A stretch of DNA of 64,000 nt, from positions 416,001 to 480,000 of the forward strand of contig CAXXLL010000002.1 of the NCBI GenBank assembly GCA_963662545.2, written 5' to 3'. Each line of letters begins with the position of its first letter. Position 1 is the first letter of the stretch. Under the pieces are notes generated by a model. That model was not told the origin of the DNA and made no database searches. It saw nothing but the letters and a program-made list of their open reading frames with translations. The position numbers and the translations under genes are program-made. The DNA is from Gammaproteobacteria bacterium (lineage in GTDB: Bacteria > Pseudomonadota > Gammaproteobacteria > Ga0077536). Below, piece by piece: positions 14,536-33,917 of this stretch.

Positions 14536-15402
14536 TGTTGATTTGCACTGAAAACTGACCCACCTGAAGGGGATATTTGCACCGAAAAATGACCCACGCC
14601 TAGACACTGGCCTGCTCGATGATCGGGCAGGAGACAAAGGAGTGATTGACGTGGCGTTATTGAGTGTGATCCGAAGGTGGCGATTTCGGGAAGGTCTCGC
14701 TATCCGCGAGATTTCCAGACGAACAGGATTGTCGCGGAATACCATCCGTAAATATCTGAGAAGCAAAGTCGTTGAGCCGCAGTACGCGACGCCAAAGCGC
14801 GCCAGCAAACTCGATGCGTTCGAGGACAAACTTGAGCGTTGGCTGGAAACAGAGCCGCGTAAGGGTCGCAAGCAGCGACGTAATCTACGGCAGATGCATG
14901 GCGACCTGGTTGCGCTGGGTTACCGGGGTTCTTACGACCGGGTAGCGGCGTTCGCGCGCGAGTGGCGACGCCAGCAACGGGAAGCGGCACGGGTCGCCGG
15001 CGGGGGTACGTTCGTGCCGTTGGTGTTTGCACCGGGCGAGGCGTTCCAGTTCGACTGGAGCGAAGACTGGGCGGTTGTCGGCGGCGAGCGGATGAAGTTC
15101 AAGGTGGCGCACTTCAAGCTGGCGCACAGCCGGGCGTTTGTGCTGCGGGCGTACCGGCAGGAAACCCACGAGATGTTGTTCGATGCGCACAATCATGCGC
15201 TGCGAGTCCTGGGCGGGGTACCGACGCGGGGTCTGTACGACAACATGAAAACGGCGGTGGACCGAATGGGTCGGGGCAAAGCACGGGTGGTCAACGCGCG
15301 CTTCGCGGCCATGACGAGTCATGACCTGTTCGAGGCGACGTTCTGTAATCCGGCGTCGGGTTGGGAGAAGGGGCAGGTCGAGAAGCAGGTGCAGGATGCG
15401 CG
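14536..15402 (+). mobile_element. Truncated IS21-family element (left end plus 5' part of istA, CDS from 14642)
   Basis: Terminal TGTTGATTTGCACTGAAAACTGACCCAC with an internal repeat at 14576-14597. IstA motifs: HTH, FQFDW, YDNMKTAV, WEKGQVE. No istB. Confidence 0.88.
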
Positions 15403-16271
15403 GCGGTTGACGCTAAACATCATATGATCGTGACGCACGAGGTGACGAACGTGGGTCATGACCGAGCGGCGCTCGCCGCCATGGCAAAGCAAGCGAAGGA
15501 AGCACTCGGTGTTGAGCACCTGGAGGTTGTCGCGGACCGGGGTTACTACAGGAGCGAGGAGAGCCTGGCGTGTGATGAAGCGGGGGTCACGACTTATCTG
15601 CCGAAACCCCAGACCTCGGGCAATCTGGCGAAGGGCCTCTTCGGCAAACGGGATTTCATTTATAAGCCCGATGATGACGAATACGAATGTCCGGCGGGAG
15701 AGCGACTGACGCGCCGCACGGAAACACACCAAGACGGATTAACAATCTACCGTTACTGGGCATCGACGTGTGGTTCATGTGCGCTCAAAGGCAAGTGCAC
15801 GACGGGGAAAGAACGACGCGTCAGCCGCTGGGAGCACGAAGCCGTGCTCGAAGCGGTTGAAGCAAGGTTGGACAAAGAGCCCGCGCGCATGCGCGTTCGA
15901 CGACAGACCGTCGAACATCCCTTCGGCACGTTGAAATCCTGGATGGGGTCGACACACTTCCAAATGAAAACGCTGAAGAACGTGGGTACGGAGATGAGTT
16001 TGCACGTGCTGGCGTACAACATGAAACGGGCGATGGCGATACTCGGGGTTGCGCCACTCATAGAAGCGATACAGTCATAGGAACCCGCCTTTTTCCCGAA
16101 ACATCCTCCGGGTGTTGGATAGACCGCGGCGGCGAATGTCCTTCGCCACTTTGGCGTCGAGTTTCTCAAACGCTGTTGGACGCGCAGAATCAGCGCATCG
16201 TGATGACGCCGCTACCAAACAGCCCGGATGAGCCGTCAAGTGCTCCGCAAAGTGAGTTTATGGACAGCCTG
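15403..16271 (+). mobile_element. 3' remnant of an IS1182-family element (transposase C-terminal half, stop at 16080)
   Basis: AVDAKHHMIV, VADRGY, YECPAG, RRQTVEHPFGTLK, LAYNMKR. The right end ...TTTATGGACAGCCTG is followed by GACC. Confidence 0.85.
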
Positions 16272-16378: not shown

Positions 16379-16795
16379 CTAATCGATTGCATCAAGCCCT
16401 GCTTGAGCGCATGCCACATCTTCCTCAACAGTGCCACCGCCCACGCCAATACCACCGACCACTTGTTCATCGATAATAATGGGAAGGCCTCCTCCTACAA
16501 CCGTTGCTCCTGAAAAGTGTGATAACCCGTGCAATAGGCTAGGGTCGTCCTTTATCCAATCGTATAAGCTCTCGGTACCCATCCCAAATAGCGAGGTAAA
16601 TGCCTTTCGTTGGCACCCCTCAATACCCAGGATCGGCGCGCCGTCCATCCTACCGAAGGCGACTAGTCGCCCGCCATCATCGACGACGGCCGCATTCTGT
16701 TTGCAATTGAGCTCCTCAGCTTTCGCGATTGCGGCTGCGATCATCTTTGTGGCCGCTTCGTAGCTTATCGATTGTTTTCGAACCGTATTTGTCAT
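16379..16795 (-). CDS. GlcG/HbpS family heme-binding protein (cassette gene)
   Basis: AVVDDGG, RMDGA, KAFTS, GGLPI...GGIGVGGG...D. Confidence 0.85.
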   Translation of the reverse strand: MTNTVRKQSISYEAATKMIAAAIAKAEELNCKQNAAVVDDGGRLVAFGRMDGAPILGIEGCQRKAFTSLFGMGTESLYDWIKDDPSLLHGLSHFSGATVVGGGLPIIIDEQVVGGIGVGGGTVEEDVACAQAGLDAID

Positions 16796-16884
16796 TTTAG
16801 ATCCCCTCCGTTCATTCAATATGATATTTGCAGCGACGTCGTCCGACCGAAGGTAACGCCCCTTGCGTGAGTATTCTTCTGGCT

Positions 16885-17148
16885 GCCTAACGAGGGTGTA
16901 GAAAAAGTCCCGCAATTCGAAAAAGTGCAAAAATTGGGGGTCTCGAAACCATTGCCTTGATCGAGATCGTCGCTTACAGCGCAACTGGGAAGGTCGAATT
17001 TCTCATCGAATTCTCGGATAGACTTATCCTACAACTTCAACGCTAGGATAACCGGCGTGTTACAGCGGGCTCTTTTGGGACGAAAATGCGAAGCCGACCC
17101 AAAAGAGCCCGCTGTAACACGTCAGGTTGATCCATTGTATGGTGAGGC
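16885..17148 (-). repeat. Integron attC-like site (MITE inserted at its R' box)
   Basis: GCCTAAC at 16885 and a perfect 24-bp inverted repeat (17056-17079 / 17098-17121); the far R box is degenerate. Confidence 0.72.
16892..17038. mobile_element. 147-bp MITE, copy 1, with AAC duplicated on both sides
   Basis: Imperfect terminal IRs GAGGGTGTAGAAAAAGTC / GACTTATCCTACAACTTC; homologous to 17581-17727. Confidence 0.8.
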
Positions 17149-17155
17149 GGATACA

Positions 17156-17575
17156 TTACTCTCGGCATCTTAGCGGTTTGAACCTTATCGGAACTGTACC
17201 CAAAGAACACTGATCCCACGTCTTGTGTTCTGGGTCAAAACGCCAGCCGATGCTCTTTCCCGCGACGTGCTCGTAAACACCTGTAGTTTTCAGTGTTACA
17301 AAGTATGGATTGGAGCCTTCAACGGTGGCGACAAATTCGCCATAGCCGCCTACATTCTTGAGTTCGCTAATATCGGGCATACGTCCAGTTTCTTCATAGA
17401 ACGGCTCAGCCTCCCGTTTGATTCTGTAGAGAATCGTAACGGCTTCTGAAACATGAAACTTTCCTGATGTATCTGGCGAAGGTTGGCTCGGAATCCATAC
17501 CGCGAGAAAGACCGCGGCAATGAATAGTAGGGCGAAAACGTGAAGCGGTTTTATGGGCCCGATCTTCATATCCAT
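17156..17575 (-). CDS. Pilin-domain-like protein without a class III signal peptide (cassette gene)
   Basis: N-terminal TM, SEAVTIL...FYEETGRMP helix and a C-terminal W-x-x-C...P..C disulfide loop typical of pilins; no GFTLIE motif. Confidence 0.55.
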   Translation of the reverse strand: MDMKIGPIKPLHVFALLFIAAVFLAVWIPSQPSPDTSGKFHVSEAVTILYRIKREAEPFYEETGRMPDISELKNVGGYGEFVATVEGSNPYFVTLKTTGVYEHVAGKSIGWRFDPEHKTWDQCSLGTVPIRFKPLRCRE

Positions 17576-17580
17576 CTAAC

Positions 17581-17727
17581 GAGGGTGTAGGAAAAGCCCC
17601 ACAGACTGAAAATGTGCCAAATTCGGGGCTCTCGATACCATTACCCTAACCGAGATCGTCGCTTACAGAGCGTCTGACGAGGCCGAATTTCTGAGCGATT
17701 ATTCGCAACGACTTATCCTACAACCTC
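17581..17727. mobile_element. 147-bp MITE, copy 2, with AAC duplicated on both sides
   Basis: Same length and end types as copy 1; shared core GAGATCGTCGCTTACAG. Confidence 0.8.
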
Positions 17728-17828
17728 AACGCTGAGTTAACCGGCGTGTTACACCGGGCTTTTCTGAAGCGAAAATTGCGCAGCTGCGAAAGAAAAGGGA
17801 ATTACGCAGAAAAGTTGACAGCACCTAT

Positions 17829-17993
17829 TTAGGTGACCTCTTTTATGGTCGGCGTCCCGCTGCGATCTGTACGCAAGACAAAGCGTTTATTAACTTCTGC
17901 TTTCGTTGGGCGCTTTGGGCGTCCAGCCGCAGGCTTTACCTTATTCATGCGCTGTAATGCTCTGGTTGATCGATCAAGCGCCTTTTGTTTCAT
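17829..17993 (-). CDS. Small basic hypothetical passenger protein (54 aa)
   Basis: Read by hand: MKQKALDRSTRALQRMNKVKPAAGRPKRPTKAEVNKRFVLRTDRSGTPTIKEVT. Confidence 0.4.
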   Translation of the reverse strand: MKQKALDRSTRALQRMNKVKPAAGRPKRPTKAEVNKRFVLRTDRSGTPTIKEVT

Positions 17994-18020
17994 AATCTGA
18001 ATATTCTAAAAGTGAGAGTC

Positions 18021-18990
18021 TTAATCGACATTATCTTCGTCTGGCGCTTCTTCGATCTGTAGGAGCGTTTGTTGCTTCACGGGCCTGTATTCTAAAACCT
18101 TCACAACATTGTGCTCCGAACTAAGTTTGTCTCCTTTCATGGTCCAAATATCTTCAATCTCACAAATCAAAACATCTGACTTACTGAACGAAACCTGATT
18201 GTTTTTTACCTTTTGAAGGAAATCGAGATCAGCAATCGTGACAGAAACTGTATTGCCCCCGTCATTGAGTCGCCACTTATTTTTCTCTTTAAACGTGAGA
18301 GATTCTATGGAAAATGCACCTTTCCTTGTGTTTCTTAGTATCTCTTCTTCGCCCTCAATCACAGGAAGGGAAAAGTATTCTTTATCTTCTTTATATATTG
18401 TTTCTATGACGTCCTTGCCAGACTGAATAACTAATTGATCTATACCTTCATATATTGTTTCTATGACGTCCTTGCCAGACTGAATAACTAATTTTATCAA
18501 GTGGGGCGGTAACTTTCTCAATCGCCTTACGGATTGAGGTTTCGTTGTACGCCCGCAGCAGGTCTTTCGGCACATCAAACGATTCACCATCAATCTCAAT
18601 GCGAACGGTCCCGTTTTCCAGGTCGGTTACTTTTGGTGCTGGCCGCCCTTTGAGCCTCTTAATAAGTCGAAATAGTCCATAGGTCGTGACACCAACACCA
18701 CCAATAATGATATCTTTGAGGTTTAAAACGGCATTAACCTCATCGCTGTTGAAAAGATCGGTGAACTGACTAAATAAAGATTGAGCCAACCCGATATCAA
18801 CACTAAAACAGCCTGCTTCAACGGCTTTAACGTGCAAGCGAACATCCACCTTGTCCCCATACAAGAGGCGGCTTGTTTCGTCGAATAATTGGGAAAGGGA
18901 GAGCAACGCTGGGGCCAGATCGCGTACGTCCACCGTGTGGTCTTGTAACGCTTCGCCATCAAACACAATGGTAAACGCTTCGTGAGTCAT
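18021..18990 (-). pseudogene. Hypothetical passenger gene frameshifted by a 43-bp duplication
   Basis: ORFs 18448-18990 and 18021-18599 join in frame (...APLDK-EGIDQLVIQ...) once the extra copy at about 18451-18493 is removed. Confidence 0.7.
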
Positions 18991-19014
18991 GCCAATGTGT
19001 GCCTTGACAAGGCG

Positions 19015-19418
19015 TTAGCCAAAGAAAAAAGTGACAAGTGCCTTCTGACTTAATTGCCAGATTTCATAGCGGTCTTTCTTAACATACATCTGGCAAGATG
19101 ATGTCGTCTCATCCCAGACAGGAACAATCACCATTTCATCGGCGAGATAGTCCATGGAATTAACGATAATCGCCTGCTCGCTTTTCTCGAAGGTAACCCC
19201 ACTTACTTGAGGTTACCGCCTTCACATCGAACTACCTTGAACTGAGTACCGAGCCCATTAGAATTTTGGATATCGAAGAGATAGTTCTGGCGCTTGCGCT
19301 GTGGCAGCCTATTCATTTCTGCAACGTCGTTTTTTGCCGCGAGGTATAGTTCCTCGAATTTAGAGCCAAGGTCGCATCTGCCCCGCTCGGCGACCCAGTT
19401 AAAGGATTCGTTACCCAT
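19015..19418 (-). pseudogene. Hypothetical passenger gene, apparently with two frameshifts
   Basis: The 72-aa ORF appears to continue in other frames (...IVPVWDETTSSC... and ...YEIWQLSQKALVTFFFG*). Confidence 0.4.
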
Positions 19419-20353
19419 CACGATACTAACCTCTCATAGGTGATTGTCTTACCCGACATTGCGCCAAACAAGGCATCTAATCTGCCTTGCGTATCTACTT
19501 CGACGTTGCCTTCATTCAGCCTGAACGAAAACTCGTTAACGTATTTCTGGCAATGCTTCTTGCTCCAGTGGTGATACACGCCGTTGTAGCCGCGCTTAAG
19601 GACCGCCCAGACGCTCTCGATTCCGTTGGTATGTGCCATGCCATTAACGTATTCCTTGGCACTGTGCTTAACGCTCTTGTGGGTGAAAAAGAGACCATCA
19701 AGGTCAGCATACCCTTTGTGATCATCGGTATAAACCGTCGTTCCAACTTCTACGTTTTTGGCGATCTGGCCCTGTAGTGTTTTTTTGTCAATGTTCGATA
19801 TCGGCAGCGCCTTAACCTTCCCGCCGCGCTCACGCAGACCGAGCACCGCCATTTTGCCAACCGCGCCACGGCCAGCGCGGAGTTTCTTGCTGGTGTGTTT
19901 GTTTGACTCTTTGCCGCCGAGGTAGGTTTCGTCTACCTCTACAGCCCCACTCAAGGCTTCCATATCTTCGCCACAGGCCAAACGTAAGCGGTGTAGCATG
20001 TACCAAGCCGTTGTTTGTGTAACAGATAGTTCCTTGCTCAACTGTAGGCTGCTAATCCCTTTACGCGCCGTCATCAGCAAGTATGCGGCAAACAACCACT
20101 TGCGCATATCCACCTTTCCATATTCAAGCGGGGTGTTGGTCCGAGCGGTGAAGTAGCTGCGGCAATACCCACACCAGTAACGGCCGATGTCCTTCTTTTG
20201 CGGTGTGATCTTATCCTCTCCGCCACACCGCACACAGCAAAGCGAATCACCCCAGCGGATTTGCTCAAGGTATTTGATTGCATCCGCCTCGGTTGGATAT
20301 TGCTCCATCAACTCGAAAAGGCTTATTGTTTTTGCTTTTCTGCGTGCCATCAA
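19418..20353 (-). CDS. IS1595-family transposase
   Basis: Zn ribbon CxxC...CxxC, VEVDETYLGG, VYTDD, HTNGIESVW, YVNEFSFR. Confidence 0.95.
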   Translation of the reverse strand: MMARRKAKTISLFELMEQYPTEADAIKYLEQIRWGDSLCCVRCGGEDKITPQKKDIGRYWCGYCRSYFTARTNTPLEYGKVDMRKWLFAAYLLMTARKGISSLQLSKELSVTQTTAWYMLHRLRLACGEDMEALSGAVEVDETYLGGKESNKHTSKKLRAGRGAVGKMAVLGLRERGGKVKALPISNIDKKTLQGQIAKNVEVGTTVYTDDHKGYADLDGLFFTHKSVKHSAKEYVNGMAHTNGIESVWAVLKRGYNGVYHHWSKKHCQKYVNEFSFRLNEGNVEVDTQGRLDALFGAMSGKTITYERLVS

Positions 20354-20385
20354 TGTGTCCTTAATGTGTCAGTTAATATGGCTGT

Positions 20386-20415
20386 ATTATAGGGTATACA
20401 AGAGATGTTTGTCAA
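20386..20415 (-). promoter_or_regulatory. Sigma70 promoter of the IS1595 transposase
   Basis: TTGACA-N18-TATAAT on the minus strand, with the -35 inside the IR. Confidence 0.65.
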
Positions 20416-20494
20416 CTTTCCTGCGTAATTCCCAAAGAAAAGCCCGCTGTAACACGTCCGGTTGAACGACTGGTTAGGTCGCACCAGTATTATT

Positions 20495-20968
20495 TTAGGC
20501 ATTCGGTTCGCTGCTCATGATCGGACGCATGATGTCGACGGTACCTCCAACCGAATAATCTTTGAGGATTTTTCGAAATTCAGAGTGTAACCGAGGGTAT
20601 CGCCTAATTATCCGTTCTACGTCTTCGCAGAACGAGACGTAGACGACCTCGTCAACCAGATCGCGATCATGCGAAATTTGAATTTCCATCCAGTGGACGA
20701 GGTACCGCCGCGCAATCGCTTCTAATAGAGCCTCTTCCGTCCTATTTAGCCCATCGTTGTCTTCGAGCTTTCCAAACAACTCCGGGATCAGCGGATTAGC
20801 GAGCATTACCTCCTGCATCCGGTTGAATTCATTCAGGACGCCGGAACTCGCAGCTGCAGTACTTTGCGCGGTGCTTTGTTTGATTTGGAGCGCGAGGTAG
20901 ATCAACGAGATTACCACTGCCACCGATGCGATGATTTCCGCTAATACCCCAAAATCTTGAAGTGACAT
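20495..20968 (-). CDS. Hypothetical membrane-anchored cassette protein
   Basis: MSLQDFGVLAEIIASVAVVISLIYLALQIKQ; bounded by attC sites on both sides. Confidence 0.75.
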   Translation of the reverse strand: MSLQDFGVLAEIIASVAVVISLIYLALQIKQSTAQSTAAASSGVLNEFNRMQEVMLANPLIPELFGKLEDNDGLNRTEEALLEAIARRYLVHWMEIQISHDRDLVDEVVYVSFCEDVERIIRRYPRLHSEFRKILKDYSVGGTVDIMRPIMSSEPNA

Positions 20969-20982
20969 AAACGTTTCTTGCG

Positions 20983-22439
20983 ACCTAACGACCCAGCTAA
21001 CCGGCGTTTCAAAATGGGCTTTCTTGGGACGAAAATGCAACGCCGGCACAAGAAAGCCCATTGTGAAACGTCCGGTTCAGCGCCTTGCTGAGGTATCCCC
21101 ACGAATTGGGACTTTTCATGAAGCGAATTCAATCCTTTAGATGATCGACGTGCCTGCTGCTGCCTGATCTAATGGTCGTTACCACACAATCACTTCAATC
21201 AGGAGCAGCAGCATGCACGGCATTAGCTTGTTAAAAAAATGGTGCGAGTGCAATGGCGTCATTGGGCATCGGGCTCGGCTCGATGCCACACTTCGGGTTG
21301 TTGGCGCCCTGCTTGATGGTGGCAAACTGGCCTTAACCCATTTGGGACGTCATCGATCGGGTTCGGCCTTCGTCAAACACCACATCAAAGCCGTCGACCG
21401 TCTGCTCGGTAATCGCCATCTGCATCGTGAACGTCGAGGACTCTATGCGGCCTTTGCACGGACACTCTTATCCACCGTGCGGCGCCCACTGATAGTCGTT
21501 GATTGGGCAGACTGCGAACTCGACCGTGAAATGCTCATCCTCAGAGCCGCCGTGCCCGCCGGCGGTCGTGCAATTACGGTGTATGAGGAAGTCCACCCCC
21601 TCAGTCGCTATAACAGCCCCAAAACCCATCGCGCCTTCTTGAAGGCGCTTCACCACATCGTCCCCGAGAACGTCATCCCTGTCGTCGTCACCGATGCGGG
21701 TTTCCGGGGACCCTGGTTCCGCCAGGTCGAAGCCCTGGGGTGGGATTGGATCGGCCGTATCCGAAACACTATCAAGTACTTCAAACCCGAGACCGGGCGG
21801 TGGTGTTACGTGCATTCACTCTACCCGCAGGCGACACCAAAGGTTCGGCATATCGGTGAGCGGTTGCTCTCCAAACGCCACCGTTACCGCTGTCGCTTAT
21901 ATCTGCTCCGGGCTTATCTGCCGCGTACCGGACGACATGCCCAGCGCAAAAGTTACGGCTCCAATGATGCGCTCTACCGTCGATTACATCGTTCACCGTG
22001 GCTGCTCGCAACCTCTCTCCCGCATACTCGAAACAGCGCTAAGGCCGTCGTGCGTGCTTACCAACAACGCATGCAGATTGAAGAGGCTTTCAGAGACCTC
22101 AAAAACCACCGCTGGGGTTTCGGTTTGCGCTATGCGTGGTCGAGGAATACTCAGCGCCTTGAAGTACTGCTTCTCATCGCGCTGCTCGCAACCCTGCTGC
22201 TGTGGTTGTGTGGGCTCGCAGCGAAAGCTAATCAGTGGACACGGCATTTTCAGGCGAATACCGAACGCAAACGAACCGTGCTATCCATTCCTTTCCTGGG
22301 ACAAGAACTCTGGCGAAGTCATCGATTCAAACTATCTCGCCATGATCTCCAGGACGCATTCATCACGTTACAACAACTCGTTATCTGCGAAGCTCAGTAT
22401 GCCTAATTCGTGGGGATCCTTGAGAACGCCTTGTTAGGC
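20983..22439 (-). repeat. Integron attC site split by an IS4-family element
   Basis: ACCTAAC...GCTAACCGGCGTTTCAAAATGGGCTTTCTTG pairs with CAAGAAAGCCCATTGTGAAACGTCCGGTTCAGC; GTTAGGC resumes at 22433. Confidence 0.8.
21088..22424 (+). mobile_element. IS4 family (IS10-like) element; transposase 21213-22406
   Basis: IRs CTGAGGTATCCCCACGAATT / AATTCGTGGGGATCCTTGAG; near-perfect 9-bp TSD A(G/A)CGCCTTG; motifs VDW, TDAGF, YQQRMQIEEAFRDLK. Confidence 0.92.
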
Positions 22440-22447
22440 GGCGGCTC

Positions 22448-23769
22448 GGTACGGACCGGGTAGATAGGTAACATTATAGTCAAGGTACATGGGTGACAGA
22501 TCAATGGTATTAGGTTCCTCAAAGGAGGAGTCCGATGCCCTGGAGAGAAACGTCACCAATGAACGAAAAAACGCAATTCATCGCAGACTATCTGCGCGAC
22601 CTGTTGACAGTTACCGAGCTGTGCGAACATTACGGCATCAGTCGCAAGACTGGCTACAAATGGATTGATCGGTATCTAAGCGAAGGTCCGGCGGGTTTAG
22701 AGGAACGCACACGGCGGCCTAGAACTTGCCCGCATAAAACGCCGGCGCGGCTCGAGCGCCTGATCATCGATGCGCGACAACGTCATCCGACTTGGGGCGC
22801 TCGTAAATTGCGGACGTTTCTATCGCGGAAGCACCCGCGAGAGCCGTGGCCAACACGGACAACCATTCATGACATCCTAATCCGTGAAGGATTCATCCGG
22901 ACACCGCGGCGCTCACGCAAACTCGGGCATCCGGGAAAACCTGAAACCCGAATGAATGCACCCAACCAAACCTGGGGCGCCGACTTCAAAGGGCATTTCA
23001 AGACCGAAGACGGGCGGTATTGTTACCCGTTGACCGTCACCGATGGCTTTAGTCGATACCTCATCGGATGCCAGTCATTACTCACGACCGCCGTTGAACC
23101 ATCGAAGGCGGTGTTCACCCGCTTATTCAAAGAATACGGACTGCCAGAACGCATCCGTACCGACAACGGCGTCCCCTTCGCGACGAACACGCTCGGTCGA
23201 TTATCAACGCTGTCTGCCTGGTGGATCAGGCTTGGTATTTATCCCGAGCTCATCGAACCCGGAAAGCCTCAACAAAATGGCCGACACGAACGGATGCACC
23301 GAACCTTAAAGGCGGAGACGACTCGACCTCCGGCCGGGGACTATCGCGCGCAACAGAAACGATTTAATCGGTTCCAGATTGAATTCAATGAAGAACGCCC
23401 TCATGAAGCGCTCGACATGTTCACACCTGCCGACTTCTACGAATTTTCTGCCAAAGAAATGCCTAGCAAAATCCCGCCGCTCGAATATCCTGACCGTTTC
23501 ATCAAGCGCTTCGTCAGTGCCAACGGTGGCATCCGATGGCATTCCACCCATGTGCCTGTCTCAATCGCGTGTGCCGGTGAGTACATAGGATTAGAGGAAA
23601 TCGACTGTGGTGTTTGGAACGTCTATTTCGGAACGCTTAAGCTCGGCCGAATGATTGAAAAATACAATCGGATCGAAGATGCTTACGGCCGACTAAAACG
23701 ACATTATCGATAACAAAAGTGTTACCCATCTACCTTGGCACTTTTGTTACCTTTCTCCCGGTCCGCTCA
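22448..23769 (+). mobile_element. IS481-family element; transposase 22535-23713
   Basis: MPWRETSPM, ADFKGHF, TDNG, GKPQQNGRHERMHRTLK; ends CGGACCGGG...GGTAACA with internal repeats. No clear TSD. Confidence 0.9.
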
Positions 23770-23842
23770 GGCATTTAACGAAGCCTTAAACACTTTCTCT
23801 TTAGTGTTCCCAGGGTTGCTCAAATGCACGTCGCTTGGAAAT

Positions 23843-24226
23843 CTACGCGGCACTCGCCACCACCTTGATTTCCGCGGCCAGCGTGGCTCCCCATAAACCT
23901 GCGACTTCGATCGCGGTCCAGCATGGATACGGCTTTTCGGTGATGTAACGGTCCTTCACCTTCAGAAATACTTCCTTTTGCGGTTCCAGGTCAACGTGAA
24001 ACGTTGTCACATCGATGACGTCATTCCAGGTTAATCCTGCATCTTCAAGAATCATCTGAATCGTTGAAAACGCTTTGTCGATGGCGTCTTCTAGCGACTG
24101 TCCTTCCTGAGGCGAAACGACGACCCCGGAAAGCCAGACTAGATCACCGGCTCGAATCGCTGGCGACGTGTTGAAATCATCCATCCATTCAGTTCCGGGT
24201 GGCGTATAGCTAGTTCGTGTTGACAT
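23843..24226 (-). CDS. RidA/YjgF family protein (cassette gene)
   Basis: SPAIRAGDLVWLSG, PYPCWTAIEV, EIKVVA; preceded by GTTAGGC (minus strand, 24259-24265). Confidence 0.85.
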   Translation of the reverse strand: MSTRTSYTPPGTEWMDDFNTSPAIRAGDLVWLSGVVVSPQEGQSLEDAIDKAFSTIQMILEDAGLTWNDVIDVTTFHVDLEPQKEVFLKVKDRYITEKPYPCWTAIEVAGLWGATLAAEIKVVASAA

Positions 24227-24381
24227 AACGGGTACCTTTCACGCTTTTTTCGATTGACGCCTAACAGTTAATATACGGGCAGAAACGCCCTGTTATGCAT
24301 AATACTTCGTGCGTGCATTTTGTACGGGTTTGTATCTGATTTTACTGGGTTTCCTGCATACCGTAGCGGCTAAGCGACATT

Positions 24382-25822
24382 CATAGGTCGGATCTTATAA
24401 GCCGTTGAAAAGAGGGAACCAAAAGCGCTCCATCCGATCAGATCATGAAATCAACACCAATCGACTTCGTGATCTGGGAGTATCGGATGAAGCACAGAAA
24501 TTAGCAAACGCATGGCGAAATTAGCACAGTGAGCCGGCAGTTAAAACGCACGCTAGGCGAGCGTACGCTCAACGACTTGGGGCGTGCAACGCGATTCTGT
24601 CGCCGAGAAAGGGAGGTCACGCCGTTCCGTTTAGCGGTAAGCCTAATCGAAAGCTTCGCCGGGCACTCAGCGAGCTGTATCGCTGATATTCAACGCGCTT
24701 TCAATGCGCTGTGCTCGACCACGGTGCGCTACAAACCGTTTCATAATCAGCTCGCCAAAAAACAGTTTCCGATGTTTATGCAAGCGCTGCTAAGCGAATT
24801 GCTCAATGGCCTGGCCTGCGATGTCCTCCGATTCGAACCCAACAGCCCATTTGCGCAGTTTGACCACATCCGCATCCAGGACGGCACCTCGTTTGCGTTA
24901 AAACCGGCGCTGAAGGACAGCTTTCCCGGTCGCTTCACGACCGTGAGTCCCGCCGCGGTAGAACTCCATGCCGATCTCGACCTGCTCAGTGAGACCCTGA
25001 ACGAGGTCGTACTCAGCCCTGACAGCTCAGCAGAGCGGCAGTTCTTGCCGGCCGTTGAAGAGGTCGCTGGTGGTTTGCTGCTGGCCGACCGTGGCTACTT
25101 CGCGCGGCCTTACTTTGAAGCGCTCGACACCGCCGGCGGCTATTTCATCGTGCGCGCGGGTCAAGGTATCAATCCGCTGATCGTTGCCGCTCGTCGCGCC
25201 GATGGGCGGCGGGTCAAACGCTTTGACAAGCAGCGATTGAAAGCGGTGGCATCGACCTTAAAGCGCTTCGATTGCCTCGACATGGCCGTGCAATTCGACG
25301 GCGTGCAGGGACCCTGGACCTGTCGTTTAGTCGTGCACCCCAACCTTAAAAAAGGTGCAGCACCTCGTTATCTCATCACCAATCTCGACGCCACCACCTT
25401 TACCCCCGAGCATATTAGCGACGCGTATCGCTTGCGCTGGCAGGTAGAACTGCTCTTCAAAGAGTGGAAGTCTTACGCCAATCTACACGCCTTTGATACC
25501 GCCAACCCGCACATCGCCGAAGGGCTTATCTGGGCCGCACTATGCGCCGCAACGCTGCAGCGCTATTGCGCTCATGTCACCGAGCGCTGGTTGAACGTCG
25601 CCATCTCGACTCATACCGCGGCCAAGTGCATTCATCACGTGCTCGGTCCCATTCTCCATACGCTTATCCATCGGCCCCGCTCTTTACACCGACCGCTCGA
25701 ACACGCGTTGCGCTATTTGGCCAGCAACGCTCAGCGCGCAAAACCTGACCGCGATTGCATTTCGGGACGACTCAAGCTCGGCCTTCAGCATGTTCATGCG
25801 GCCGCTTAAGAACTAACCTATG
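24382..25822 (+). mobile_element. IS4-family element, copy 1 (18-bp insertion near the transposase start; ORF 24529-25809)
   Basis: Ends CATAGGTCGGATCTTA / TAAGAACTAACCTATG; 10-bp TSD AAGCGACATT; motifs QDGT, ADRGY, YRLRWQVELLFKEWK. Confidence 0.93.
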
Positions 25823-29003: not shown

Positions 29004-29136
29004 GGGACCGCTCTTAGCCGCGAGCCGAAGTCAAGCGCTGCGATGCTTTTTATGAGAAGGGAATGGCCGTTTACGAGGGTATCCCAGACCTAACCTCTAG
29101 CATTGCTGCACTGCCGCGATCCGGCCGCTGACGACC
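29004..29136. repeat. Dispersed repeat C (third unit split by a MITE and intron; resumes at 29951)
   Basis: CCGTTTACGAGGGTA..CTCTAGC..TGCTGCACTG..GGCCGCTGACGACC. Confidence 0.7.
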
Positions 29137-29293
29137 TATTGTGTTGAAAAAGTCCGGTTCGCCGTCGGTCGCGATGTGCGTAGAAAAACCGACCGCGCAG
29201 GATCGCCTGTAAGCGACGATCGGCACTCCGGTAATGGTTTGACGACCCCCAAATTTATCGAAATCCTATGCTGCACGACTTTTTCAACACAAT
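29137..29293. mobile_element. ~159-bp MITE (last 2 nt displaced to 29949-29950 by the intron); GACC duplicated on both sides
   Basis: IRs ATTGTGTTGAAAAAGTC / GACTTTTTCAACACAAT; internal CTGTAAGCGACGATC shared with the attC MITEs. Confidence 0.8.
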
Positions 29294-29948
29294 GTGTGCC
29301 ACGAGGCACTGAAGAGATAGGGGGTCACTGAAAGTGTCGTAACTCTAACAGAGATGGAGGTAGGTCCTCCAAAGCCGCCCTGCAGGGGGGGGCTTTAAAC
29401 CACCCTAAGCTGCTCCGGTCAAGAGCCGGGGTGGTGAGCGTTAGGGAAAAGGCGTCGCAAGAGGCGTCAGGTGAGAAACAGAGAGACGAGCGCAAGCGAA
29501 CCACTGCTGAAGCGTCGAAAGAAAAATCGGGTGACATCAAAACCGAGTCTGATTGTGTGGCTCGGGAGGGATCCAGCGGGTGCCTGCTGATTGGCTGGGT
29601 GGTGTCCGGTGTATAGGTGGCGTGACGCTGTTTCGGGCTTTGTTAGGGAACGTGGGAACCTGTCGCTTGGATGTCAAGGGAGAAGTTTAAGTGGTCAACG
29701 CCACGAGAACGAGCGTACCAATGCCAGGCACAGGGGCGGAGCAACTCGTAGTAGTGATGAAGCGGGGTAATGCCCGTGGAGCGAAGGGGTTGCGTCATTC
29801 AGTCTCAGGATTGGGTCAACCCGTCAGGGGAGGAGCCCATGAGTGAGACAAAGCCGTTTCTCGGCTGAATGATGGGAGCCGGATGAGCGGAGACGTTCAC
29901 GTCCGGTTCTACGAGGGCCTCGGGGTGAAACTCCCCGGGGCTACTCAC
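29294..29948 (+). ncRNA. ORF-less group II intron (probably bacterial class D-like; RT/maturase gene deleted)
   Basis: 5' GTGTG; domain V GAGCCGGATGAGCGGAGACGTTCACGTCCGGTTC (29876-29909); domain VI ending CTACTCAC; residual 9-codon ORF MSETKPFLG* (29839-29868) with GAGGAG RBS. Confidence 0.9.
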
Positions 29949-33758: not shown

Positions 33759-33917
33759 GAGGCTGTGTCAAAAGTCGAAAAATGCACGACGCCGCGAAAA
33801 TATTTCCCACTAAGGTTGTTATGAACGGCTGATTAAGGGACGGCACCCTTTAACTTAAGCGAATCGGGCTAAACTTCTCCCACTTTCAAAATTCGAAAAT
33901 ACTTTTGACACAGCCTC
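33759..33917. mobile_element. 159-bp MITE with IS1182-like ends; GGCC duplicated on both sides
   Basis: IRs GAGGCTGTGTCAAAAGT / ACTTTTGACACAGCCTC, inserted in ATGTCCGTTGCTGGCCGAAAGCCGCCAT. Confidence 0.82.

Follow-up and report, generated by a model that had tools for sequence, protein, structure and literature searches.

The attC sites of integron gene cassettes attract mobile elements of several kinds. For instance, insertion sequences (ISs) of the IS1111-attC group (ISPa21, ISKpn4, ISPst6 and relatives; IS110/IS1111 family) are described, in the part of the source available, as sitting at a fixed position and in a fixed orientation at one end of attC (PMC11187229). Group IIC-attC introns are likewise presented, in the accessible text, as mobile elements that home to attC (PMC3001079). 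Moreover, miniature inverted-repeat transposable elements, or MITEs, i.e. short non-autonomous elements with inverted repeats, have been reported from class 1 integrons, namely a 439-bp Acinetobacter MITE and the 288-bp IMU (PMC3575428, as excerpted). According to an excerpt on the IS1182 family, IS1272 targets inverted-repeat structures and some other members of the family target palindromes (PMC5678879). In the available part of a study of ISs in the Vibrio cholerae cassette array, copies of the IS3 family are placed inside cassette genes and not at attC (PMC11023631). Here, a 64,000-nucleotide stretch of gammaproteobacterial DNA (the window) has been analysed, in which two 147-bp elements, MITE1 and MITE2, interrupt adjacent attC sites of a cassette array. 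The source genome (G000) comprises 5.58 Mb in three contigs; window positions are counted from the window start, and the minus strand is the cassette strand. We consider it likely, with a probability of roughly 80%, that both are non-autonomous MITEs of an IS group of the IS1182 family, which encodes a DDE transposase and integrates specifically at the GTT of the attC R' box. This reading is based on terminal repeats shared with the DDE-transposase ISs, on the GTT duplication, on the occupation of at least four unrelated attC types in a fixed orientation and on very recent activity of the IS in a related genome (G019).

An earlier note on the window had reported two 147-bp elements at one and the same position of neighbouring attC sites, and direct reading confirmed their coordinates, the AAC flanks and the RYYYAAC context. 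MITE1 (16892..17038, minus strand) and MITE2 (17581..17727, minus strand) are 78.4% identical. On the plus strand, they are preceded by GCCTAAC and ATCTAAC, respectively, both of which fit RYYYAAC, and the flanking AAC triplets are located at 16889-16891 and 17039-17041 for MITE1 and at 17578-17580 and 17728-17730 for MITE2. On the cassette strand, the occupied sites read ...GTTATC CTAGC GTT-147 bp-GTTAGGC and ...GTTAAC TCAGC GTT-147 bp-GTTAGAT. Both elements end in terminal inverted repeats of 16-18 bp with 2-3 mismatches. On the plus strand, the left, cassette-side repeat is GAGGGTGTAG[A/G]AAAAG, and the right, attC-side repeat, read inward, is GA[A/G]GTTGTAGGATAAG. The repeat motif has four matches in the window versus 0.62 expected. 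With 147 bp, the element is too short for a transposase gene. Among the copies compared, the internal 60 nt are more conserved than the ends. A search of Rfam assigned no family to the MITE and returned only sub-threshold matches of microRNA models on the attC hairpins. The idea that the conserved core is a guide RNA was dropped because its target-like stretch GGTTAGGG varies among the copies.

The source genome itself provides the empty sites with which the occupied ones can be compared. A single-sequence nhmmer query yielded 39 attC matches at E<1e-3 in several arrays of G000, and 34 of them, as read from the listing, have a single uninterrupted GTTAG or GTTAA core. The remaining five comprise three MITE-occupied sites, one site with GTTGGGC and one degenerate site. 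Within the array in the window, an unoccupied attC (20983..21093, minus strand; direct reading and nhmmer) serves as reference: on the cassette strand it reads ...CGCCG GTTAGC TGGGTC GTTAGGT, i.e. the L' box, a 6-nt spacer and an R' box of the form GTTRRRY. Since unoccupied sites carry a single GTT, the MITE together with 3 bp is an insertion that has duplicated the GTT, as judged against these paralogous empty attC sites. The alternative that the repeat is non-mobile and simply belongs to a long variant of attC or to a cassette segment that was duplicated had drawn some plausibility from the initial direct repeat of 201 nt, which runs from the element into the attC arm. It is refuted by the 34 element-free sites of the same attC family, by the similarity between the copies, which ends exactly at GTT on both sides, and by the presence of the same element in unrelated attC types of other organisms.

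Five full-length copies of the MITE were detected on two contigs of G000 by a BLAST search of the element against the genome. Besides MITE1, which occupies a canonical attC, and MITE2, whose canonical attC has been split by an IS1595-type element, copies are present at C2:985102 in a complete canonical attC, at C3:1949649 in a canonical attC interrupted by a further small insertion and at C3:1843345 in a short attC-like site. In the latter, the L box is canonical but has one extra base, the spacers measure 5 nt, the R' box reads GTTGGGC and R'' is degenerate. Thus, four of the five copies reside in one conserved attC family of about 100 nt and one in the short site; R''/R' and L''/L' boxes around a hairpin, together with an R' box matching GTTRRRY, were found at four of the five target sites. 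All five copies are bordered by GTT at either end and point the same way relative to attC, with the arrangement [L']-spacer-GTT, element, GTT[A/G]GG. In G000, 1596 instances of CGTT[AG]G[AG], the word common to the insertion sites, stand against about 40 attC sites, and a word of that size can therefore not explain the exclusive location at attC.

The copies in G000 are 69-82% identical to each other, except for MITE2 and the copy at C2:985102-985248, which share 98% identity. In this pair, the upstream attC subtype and the downstream cassette both differ and the similarity ends at the GTT on each side. The attC subtypes at the MITE1 and MITE2 sites are different as well (GTTATCCTAGC versus GTTAACTCAGC), and so are the downstream genes. 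These differences rule out a single ancestral cassette duplication and suggest that the 147-bp unit itself has moved; the 98% identity of the one pair points to a fairly recent move. The suggestion of the earlier note that the elements are targeted site-specifically to the R' triplet of attC, thereby duplicating GTT, is thus strongly supported, as all five copies in G000 are found at the R' GTT of an attC or attC-like site. Neither of the two outcomes that the note had regarded as incompatible with this suggestion, copies outside attC or descent from one duplicated cassette, was encountered among the copies examined.

Further traces were noticed at two of these places. The attC at C3:1949649 contains a second insertion of about 88 bp (L005 1379-1478, corresponding to G000 C3:1949533-1949632), which is bounded by a 10-11-bp direct repeat, GGTTATCCTAG, and lies within the L'-spacer region. 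Moreover, a truncated end of a MITE or an IS (TAGTCTGTAGAAAAAGTCC) follows directly after ATCTAAC at C2:766050-766120, in a region resembling a decayed cassette array.

It is conceivable that a unit of about 150 bp that is flanked by GTT in a fixed orientation is an unusual integron cassette or has been placed between the G and the TT of the triplet by the integron integrase IntI. Indeed, insertion of a circle by IntI at this position predicts exactly GTT...GTT and a fixed orientation, and G000 has two intI genes that score above the TIGR02249 cut-off. However, the element has no R''/L''/L' arrangement, there is no RYYYAAC or AAC on its cassette strand that could pair with R', and its ends are those of transposase-encoding ISs of 1.6-1.8 kb with the same junctions. 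We therefore regard a role of the integrase in placing the element as very unlikely.

The MITE is also found outside of G000. Of 81 genomes of the taxonomic family of the window, G000 included, two carry it, and the copy in the second genome, G017, is inserted in the same orientation at the R' GTT of a different attC of about 65 nt. A scan of metagenome contigs with the conserved internal pattern retrieved 55 loci, ten of which contain the MITE. They provide 11 junction sets, one locus having two copies and two loci apparently representing one place. Each of the 11 right junctions starts with GTT[A]..., and all six left junctions that are present end with GTT. At least four of the six left flanks represent a third attC type, ...GTTAGC NNGAC GTT, and one more, which is shortened, ends with GCGAC GTT. 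Altogether, at least 12 further copies exist outside of G000, in the related genome and on metagenome contigs, and they are distributed over three other attC sequence types. A pattern scan of genome contigs returned at least 119 stretches; among the matches compared, only L102 was full-length, and it is identical to the G017 copy, the others being rejected as chance or weak partial matches. A search of plasmid DNA with the MITE gave no match. Furthermore, relatives harbour related small elements with the repeats of their resident IS: two 159-bp MITEs in G019, whose core is visibly related to that of the MITEs in the window, and one 84-bp mini-element in G023. All three are located at an attC GTT, and both 159-bp MITEs have the orientation of the element in the window. 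In every MITE that could be oriented, the AAATTCGRCCTC...GCGACGATC half adjoins the attC hairpin.

The earlier note had recommended a search for an autonomous IS with matching ends. Such a partner has been found in relatives, though not in G000 itself. It is an IS of 1.6-1.8 kb that is of the IS1182 type and has the same repeat as the MITE (GAGGGTGTAGAAAAA), and it occurs with the same ends and the same duplication in the genomes G017, G019, G023, G066 and G082. By a pattern search, the end GAGGGTGTAGAAAAAC was found to abut GCCTAAC on contig C308 of G017, and behind it come 280 N-terminal codons of a frameshifted and truncated transposase gene of the IS1182 type. When a 201-residue piece of this transposase was compared with 81 genomes of the order, five genomes matched. 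The complete genome of G019 contains seven full copies with 83% identity to the G017 piece, six of 1778 bp and one of 1763 bp, which have the repeats GAGGGTGTAGAAAAAC and an open transposase frame of 520 amino acids (aa) from the first start codon. Each of the seven copies is preceded by RYYYAAC and followed by AAC, the spacer and L', so that the duplicated triplet is that of the attC R' box. Among the 118 attC matches in the 95 kb examined of the G019 array, six are preceded by an IS end. The six array copies fall into two groups of two and four, which are identical within the group and ten bases apart, and the cassettes downstream all differ. Thus, these insertions happened recently and independently of each other. 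An integrase gene is located 35 kb beyond this array. The IS copies in G023, G066 and G082 show the same junctions. For an identical protein, the precomputed domains of the partner transposase are PF05598 (DUF772, N-terminal), PF01609 (DDE_Tnp_1) and PF13751 (DDE_Tnp_1_6).

The nature of this protein also bears on the question of whether the elements are RNA-guided, of the IS110/IS1111 type, in which case there would be no true duplication and one of the two GTT copies would belong to the element. The available text on that family offers two parallels, as IS1111-attC elements also target attC in one orientation and what looked like duplications has since been attributed to the element itself (PMC11187229). 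According to the same text, however, the known elements encode a DEDD transposase, and their repeats of 11-13 bp are subterminal, with extensions of 7 and 3 bp (PMC11187229, in part), whereas just three extra bases, terminal repeats and a partner protein of the DDE IS1182 type were found here. Neither a DEDD transposase nor a guide RNA matching attC was seen with these ends. An RNA-guided origin is therefore highly improbable.

The IS group was also traced in the class as a whole. Of 400 genomes scored in an evenly spread class sample, 20 have a homologue at E<=1e-50, with 39-58% identity. Five loci of two genomes were left out and no end was found at two more, leaving 18 loci, for which only near-perfect pattern matches to the ends next to the transposase gene were kept. 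GTT is present outside all 13 left ends and all 17 right ends thus defined. For 11 sites, ten from the class sample and one from Pseudoalteromonas, the empty target was reconstructed. The minimum-energy fold is a hairpin closed by AAC/GTT in six of the 11; another three show RYYYAAC-N5-L'' by eye and two show neither feature clearly. Two Pseudoalteromonas replicons carry IS copies with 41-42% identity, the same ends and GTT flanks, and the copy with 42% identity adjoins an attC-like site. The transposase family is large, as at least 7706 clusters reached E<=1e-80 among 8000 candidates scored, and the sources name these proteins only 'transposase'. Within the window's own family, all copies (loci L226-L237) have their transposase gene antisense to the cassettes, whereas it is in sense in every homologue of the class sample and in both Pseudoalteromonas copies (loci L275-L292 and L238). 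Thus, the orientation of the IS is fixed within a lineage and flipped between lineages. In several class-sample ISs (L283, L284, L285 and L290), the right repeat occurs a second time within the last 60 nt, as an inverted subterminal copy (GGACTGTAGAATA...TTTTTCTACAGCCTC), which enables the right IS end to form its own hairpin directly before the flanking GTT.

Several observations weigh against an assignment of the MITEs to this IS group. Beyond the terminal repeats, the MITE could not be matched consistently with either end of any of the ISs compared; because only the repeats are in common, the orientation of the MITE cannot be mapped onto either orientation of the IS. G000 has no close homologue of the transposase, the best match being 28% identical and belonging to an IS1182-type element with different ends. 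Moreover, one IS copy in G023 (L231) has GTT on one side only. Finally, with 261.7 bits, the partner transposase remains just below the curated cut-off of 270 of the NCBIfam model NF033551 for the IS1182 family; the match covers positions 13-488 of 488. Apart from the repeats, MITE and IS have only the 10-mer GCGACGATCT in common, with a z-score of about 2.5-4, and the proposal that the MITE descended from the partner IS by internal deletion was dropped because consistent internal similarity was not found.

In G000, searches by repeat similarity and by protein revealed no element that combines the MITE ends with a transposase gene. Several candidates were rejected. GAGGTTGTAGATAACGGC is inside a repeated coding region beside tyrosine recombinase genes, GAGGTTCTCGAAAAAGTC is coding sequence, and C2:766099, where the end described above follows ATCTAAC, holds no more than a truncated remnant. 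Two further elements of G000, one of the IS1182 type with 16 copies and one of the IS630 type with 1152 bp, have other ends. The IS1182 fragment beside the array (15361-16080) has only 23% identity to the partner transposase. As the cognate transposase is missing from the genome, the five copies look orphaned.

This situation leaves room for the explanation that the MITE was moved by another transposase and that its likeness to the attC-specific IS1182 group is due to convergent or borrowed terminal repeats. The lack of internal homology beyond the repeats and of a cognate transposase in G000 would agree with it, and so would the fact that this genome contains further MITE families of equal size whose ends are related but whose targets differ, one of these families sharing the internal core of the MITE. 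On the other hand, the repeat, the 3-bp GTT duplication, the R' target in attC and the fixed orientation all coincide with those of the IS group, and the repeats of the G019 MITEs match those of the resident IS at 15-16 of 16 bases. Hence, we consider mobilisation by another transposase unlikely.

The other repeat families of G000 deserve a brief description. The family sharing the internal core (CTGTAAGCGACGATC...AATGGTTT...CCCCAAAT) with the attC-specific MITE, from which it differs in ends and target, is about 158 bp long, has the ends TTGTGTTGAAAAAGTC and is flanked by TA. It is represented at 29137-29294 in the window and at C2:76132, 76752, 737831 and 1609213 as well as C3:2555789 and 2557691 in G000, and a full-length IS1182-type element with its ends is located at C2:1713460-1715080. 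Two further MITE families of similar size are spread over the genome, with examples at C2:392138-392298 and C2:449759-449917 (window 33759-33917). One of them is 161 bp long, has the ends CAGGYTGTTGAAAAAC and a 4-bp YTAR duplication and possesses an IS5-type relative at C3:361991; the other one is 159 bp long, has the ends GAGGCTGTGTCAAAAG and always lies between GGCC and GGCC. In addition, a REP-like repeat of about 60 nt (CAGACCTAAC...TGCTGCACTGCCGCGAT...GCTGACGACC) is present at 29085-29135 in the window and at about 50 other places in G000, and it hosts several IS and MITE insertions.

If the MITEs belong to the IS1182-type group, as we favour, their insertion may be envisaged as follows. 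A transposase supplied in trans would bind the terminal repeats of 16-18 bp, the target would be cut with a 3-bp stagger around GTT, and joining of the element at this position would leave GTT on both sides. Insertion would take place in a single orientation relative to attC. The target would be read as attC architecture, i.e. stem, L' box, spacer and GTT, possibly in the form of folded DNA or of an integrase-bound site, and not as a word. As the targets share only approximately C-GTT-R and yet the insertions are confined to attC sites of several unrelated types, it is probably the architecture that is recognised, as far as sequence comparison can tell. Recognition of this kind would fit the taste for inverted repeats and palindromes that is reported, in the accessible part of the source, for members of the IS1182 family (PMC5678879). 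The copies in G000 would have been mobilised in trans by such a transposase, which is now missing from the genome, and each would travel as the 5' part of the downstream cassette as long as the attC stays usable.

The earlier note had also proposed that the insertion separates R' from the attC hairpin and thereby could lock cassettes in place. The first part of this claim holds only in part. One GTT remains beside the hairpin at the correct distance from L', and together with the terminal GAGG of the element it rebuilds the sequence GTTGAGG, which fits GTTRRRY at six of seven positions. When the intact, occupied site at C2:985102 was folded as DNA, six of the seven positions of the R box still paired, and the predicted energy was -41.7 kcal/mol as compared to -45.9 kcal/mol for the reconstructed empty site. 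Judging from these features, an occupied attC probably stays at least partly functional, and the duplicated GTT argues against simple locking of the cassette. If the attC is still usable, the element would form the leader of the downstream cassette and be moved with it whenever the proximal GTT recombines. The further idea of the note that the elements supply promoters received no support, as a crude consensus scan found no sigma-70-like site in either element on the cassette strand.

The cassette array that hosts the two MITEs is short and lies on the minus strand at 16379-21093, and there is no integrase gene within the window. It comprises three cassette genes, at 16379-16795, 17156-17575 and 20495-20967, and the attC sites between them all belong to the conserved family of about 100 nt. 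The gene downstream of MITE1 (16379..16795, minus strand) encodes a 138-aa protein of the HbpS-like haem-degrading family (PF03928, E 4.7e-32), and its ATG at 16795 is 90 nt after GTTAGGC. This cassette-side R' core (16885..16891, minus strand; GCCTAAC on the plus strand) was read directly and matches both GTTRRRY and the R' box of unoccupied attC sites; its GTT at 16889-16891 is one copy of the 3-bp duplication at MITE1. On the other side of the element, attC1 (17039..17145, minus strand) is defined by its inverted repeat, an nhmmer attC match and the DNA fold. It consists of the second GTT copy at 17039-17041, a spacer, L' GTTATC, a stem of 27 bp (17056-17082 / 17095-17121), L'' GATCAAC and a degenerate R'' ACCATAC. 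The cassette gene between the two attC sites (17156..17575, minus strand) encodes 139 aa without a Pfam family, and the gene at 20495-20967 has no family either. The cassette-side R' core GTTAGAT at MITE2 (17574..17580, minus strand) was also read directly, and its GTT at 17578-17580 is one of the duplication copies. The R'-proximal part of attC2 (17728..17796, minus strand) contains the second GTT copy at 17728-17730, the spacer, an L' box GTTAAC and one arm of the stem. At its end is the 8-bp sequence AAAGAAAA, which has been duplicated by the insertion of an IS1595-family element of 2.6 kb with passenger open reading frames (17797..20433, minus strand). The latter was recognised by its inverted ends GGGAATTACGCAG and AAAGTTGACA, by the flanking 8-bp duplication and by a transposase gene at 19418-20353 (PF12762, E 2e-44). 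It is inserted in the stem and thus splits attC2, which is separate from the MITE question. The distal part of attC2 (20434..20479, minus strand) comprises the other stem arm, L'' GTTCAAC, the spacer CAGTC and R'' ACCTAAC. On the cassette strand, the unoccupied reference attC precedes the third gene, whose ATG at 20967 comes 14 nt after the site.

IS debris surrounds the array on both sides, at 14642-16170 and 21100-25809. One side holds an IS21-like N-terminal fragment and an IS1182-like C-terminal fragment, and the other side three transposase genes (DDE_Tnp_1, 397 aa; IS481-like, 392 aa; DDE_Tnp_1, 426 aa), and the first of these three ISs abuts the R'' end of the unoccupied attC. Among contigs from public reads, which all break at repeats at this locus, none bridging an empty site was found. 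A single contig from a metatranscriptome is confined to 17318-17513, within the gene for the 139-aa protein. One X10 contig skips 16906-17027 with only 22 letters on one side, and no inference was drawn from it.

These elements are of relevance because adaptive genes are stored on a large scale in cassette arrays, whose only handles are the attC sites. Homing to attC had so far been reported for IS1111-type ISs and group IIC introns; a DDE group with MITE offspring that lands on the very triplet used by the integrase represents a third route and is a natural probe of how attC is recognised by proteins other than IntI. Moreover, the elements split attC and place a cassette 0.15-1.8 kb further away from its upstream site, and integron annotation tools may therefore miss cassettes or set their boundaries wrongly. 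If an occupied attC remains active, the element could move with cassettes between replicons. More tentatively, and with the odds leaning somewhat against it, we suggest that an abundant, unnamed clade of DDE ISs of the IS1182 family, along with its MITEs, has specialised on the crossover triplet, that it recognises attC by its structure and cuts 3 bp around GTT, that the terminal GAGG rebuilds a usable R' core so that attC stays recombinogenic, and that the transposon rides on the mobile cassette. If so, it would gain a harmless landing site together with a ride on integron-mediated gene transfer.

Full-text literature searches did not uncover an IS1182-family or MITE element that targets attC; ISfinder was outside their coverage, and the group may have been named there. 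The attC-specific IS1182-type group appears to be undescribed. In comparison with the known systems, its transposase has the domains of the IS1182 family and scores just under the cut-off of the family model. IS1272 differs, as described in the available part of the source, in that it makes no target duplication and replaces the target repeat (PMC5678879), whereas here GTT is cleanly duplicated at a defined position of a recombination site. The MITEs of class 1 integrons, according to the excerpt, flank whole integrons, which they move as composite units, and are not in attC (PMC3575428). An integron gene cassette resembles the MITE in having GTT on both sides, in the crossover point and in the fixed orientation, but the MITE contains no attC and ends in transposon repeats. 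Unlike the 147-bp elements with terminal inverted repeats and no Rfam match, group IIC-attC introns measure about 2 kb and are retroelements that possess intron RNA and a reverse transcriptase. The IS1111-attC group has the target and the specificity of orientation in common with it, but the accessible part of the source describes a DEDD transposase guided by a seekRNA, repeats that are subterminal and have 7- and 3-bp extensions, and the absence of a duplication (PMC11187229). By contrast, the elements presented here have a DDE transposase of the IS1182 type, terminal repeats of 16-18 bp, a 3-bp duplication and MITE derivatives. If the more tentative proposal made above is correct, they would constitute a third, mechanistically distinct class of attC parasites beside the IS1111-attC elements and the group IIC-attC introns.

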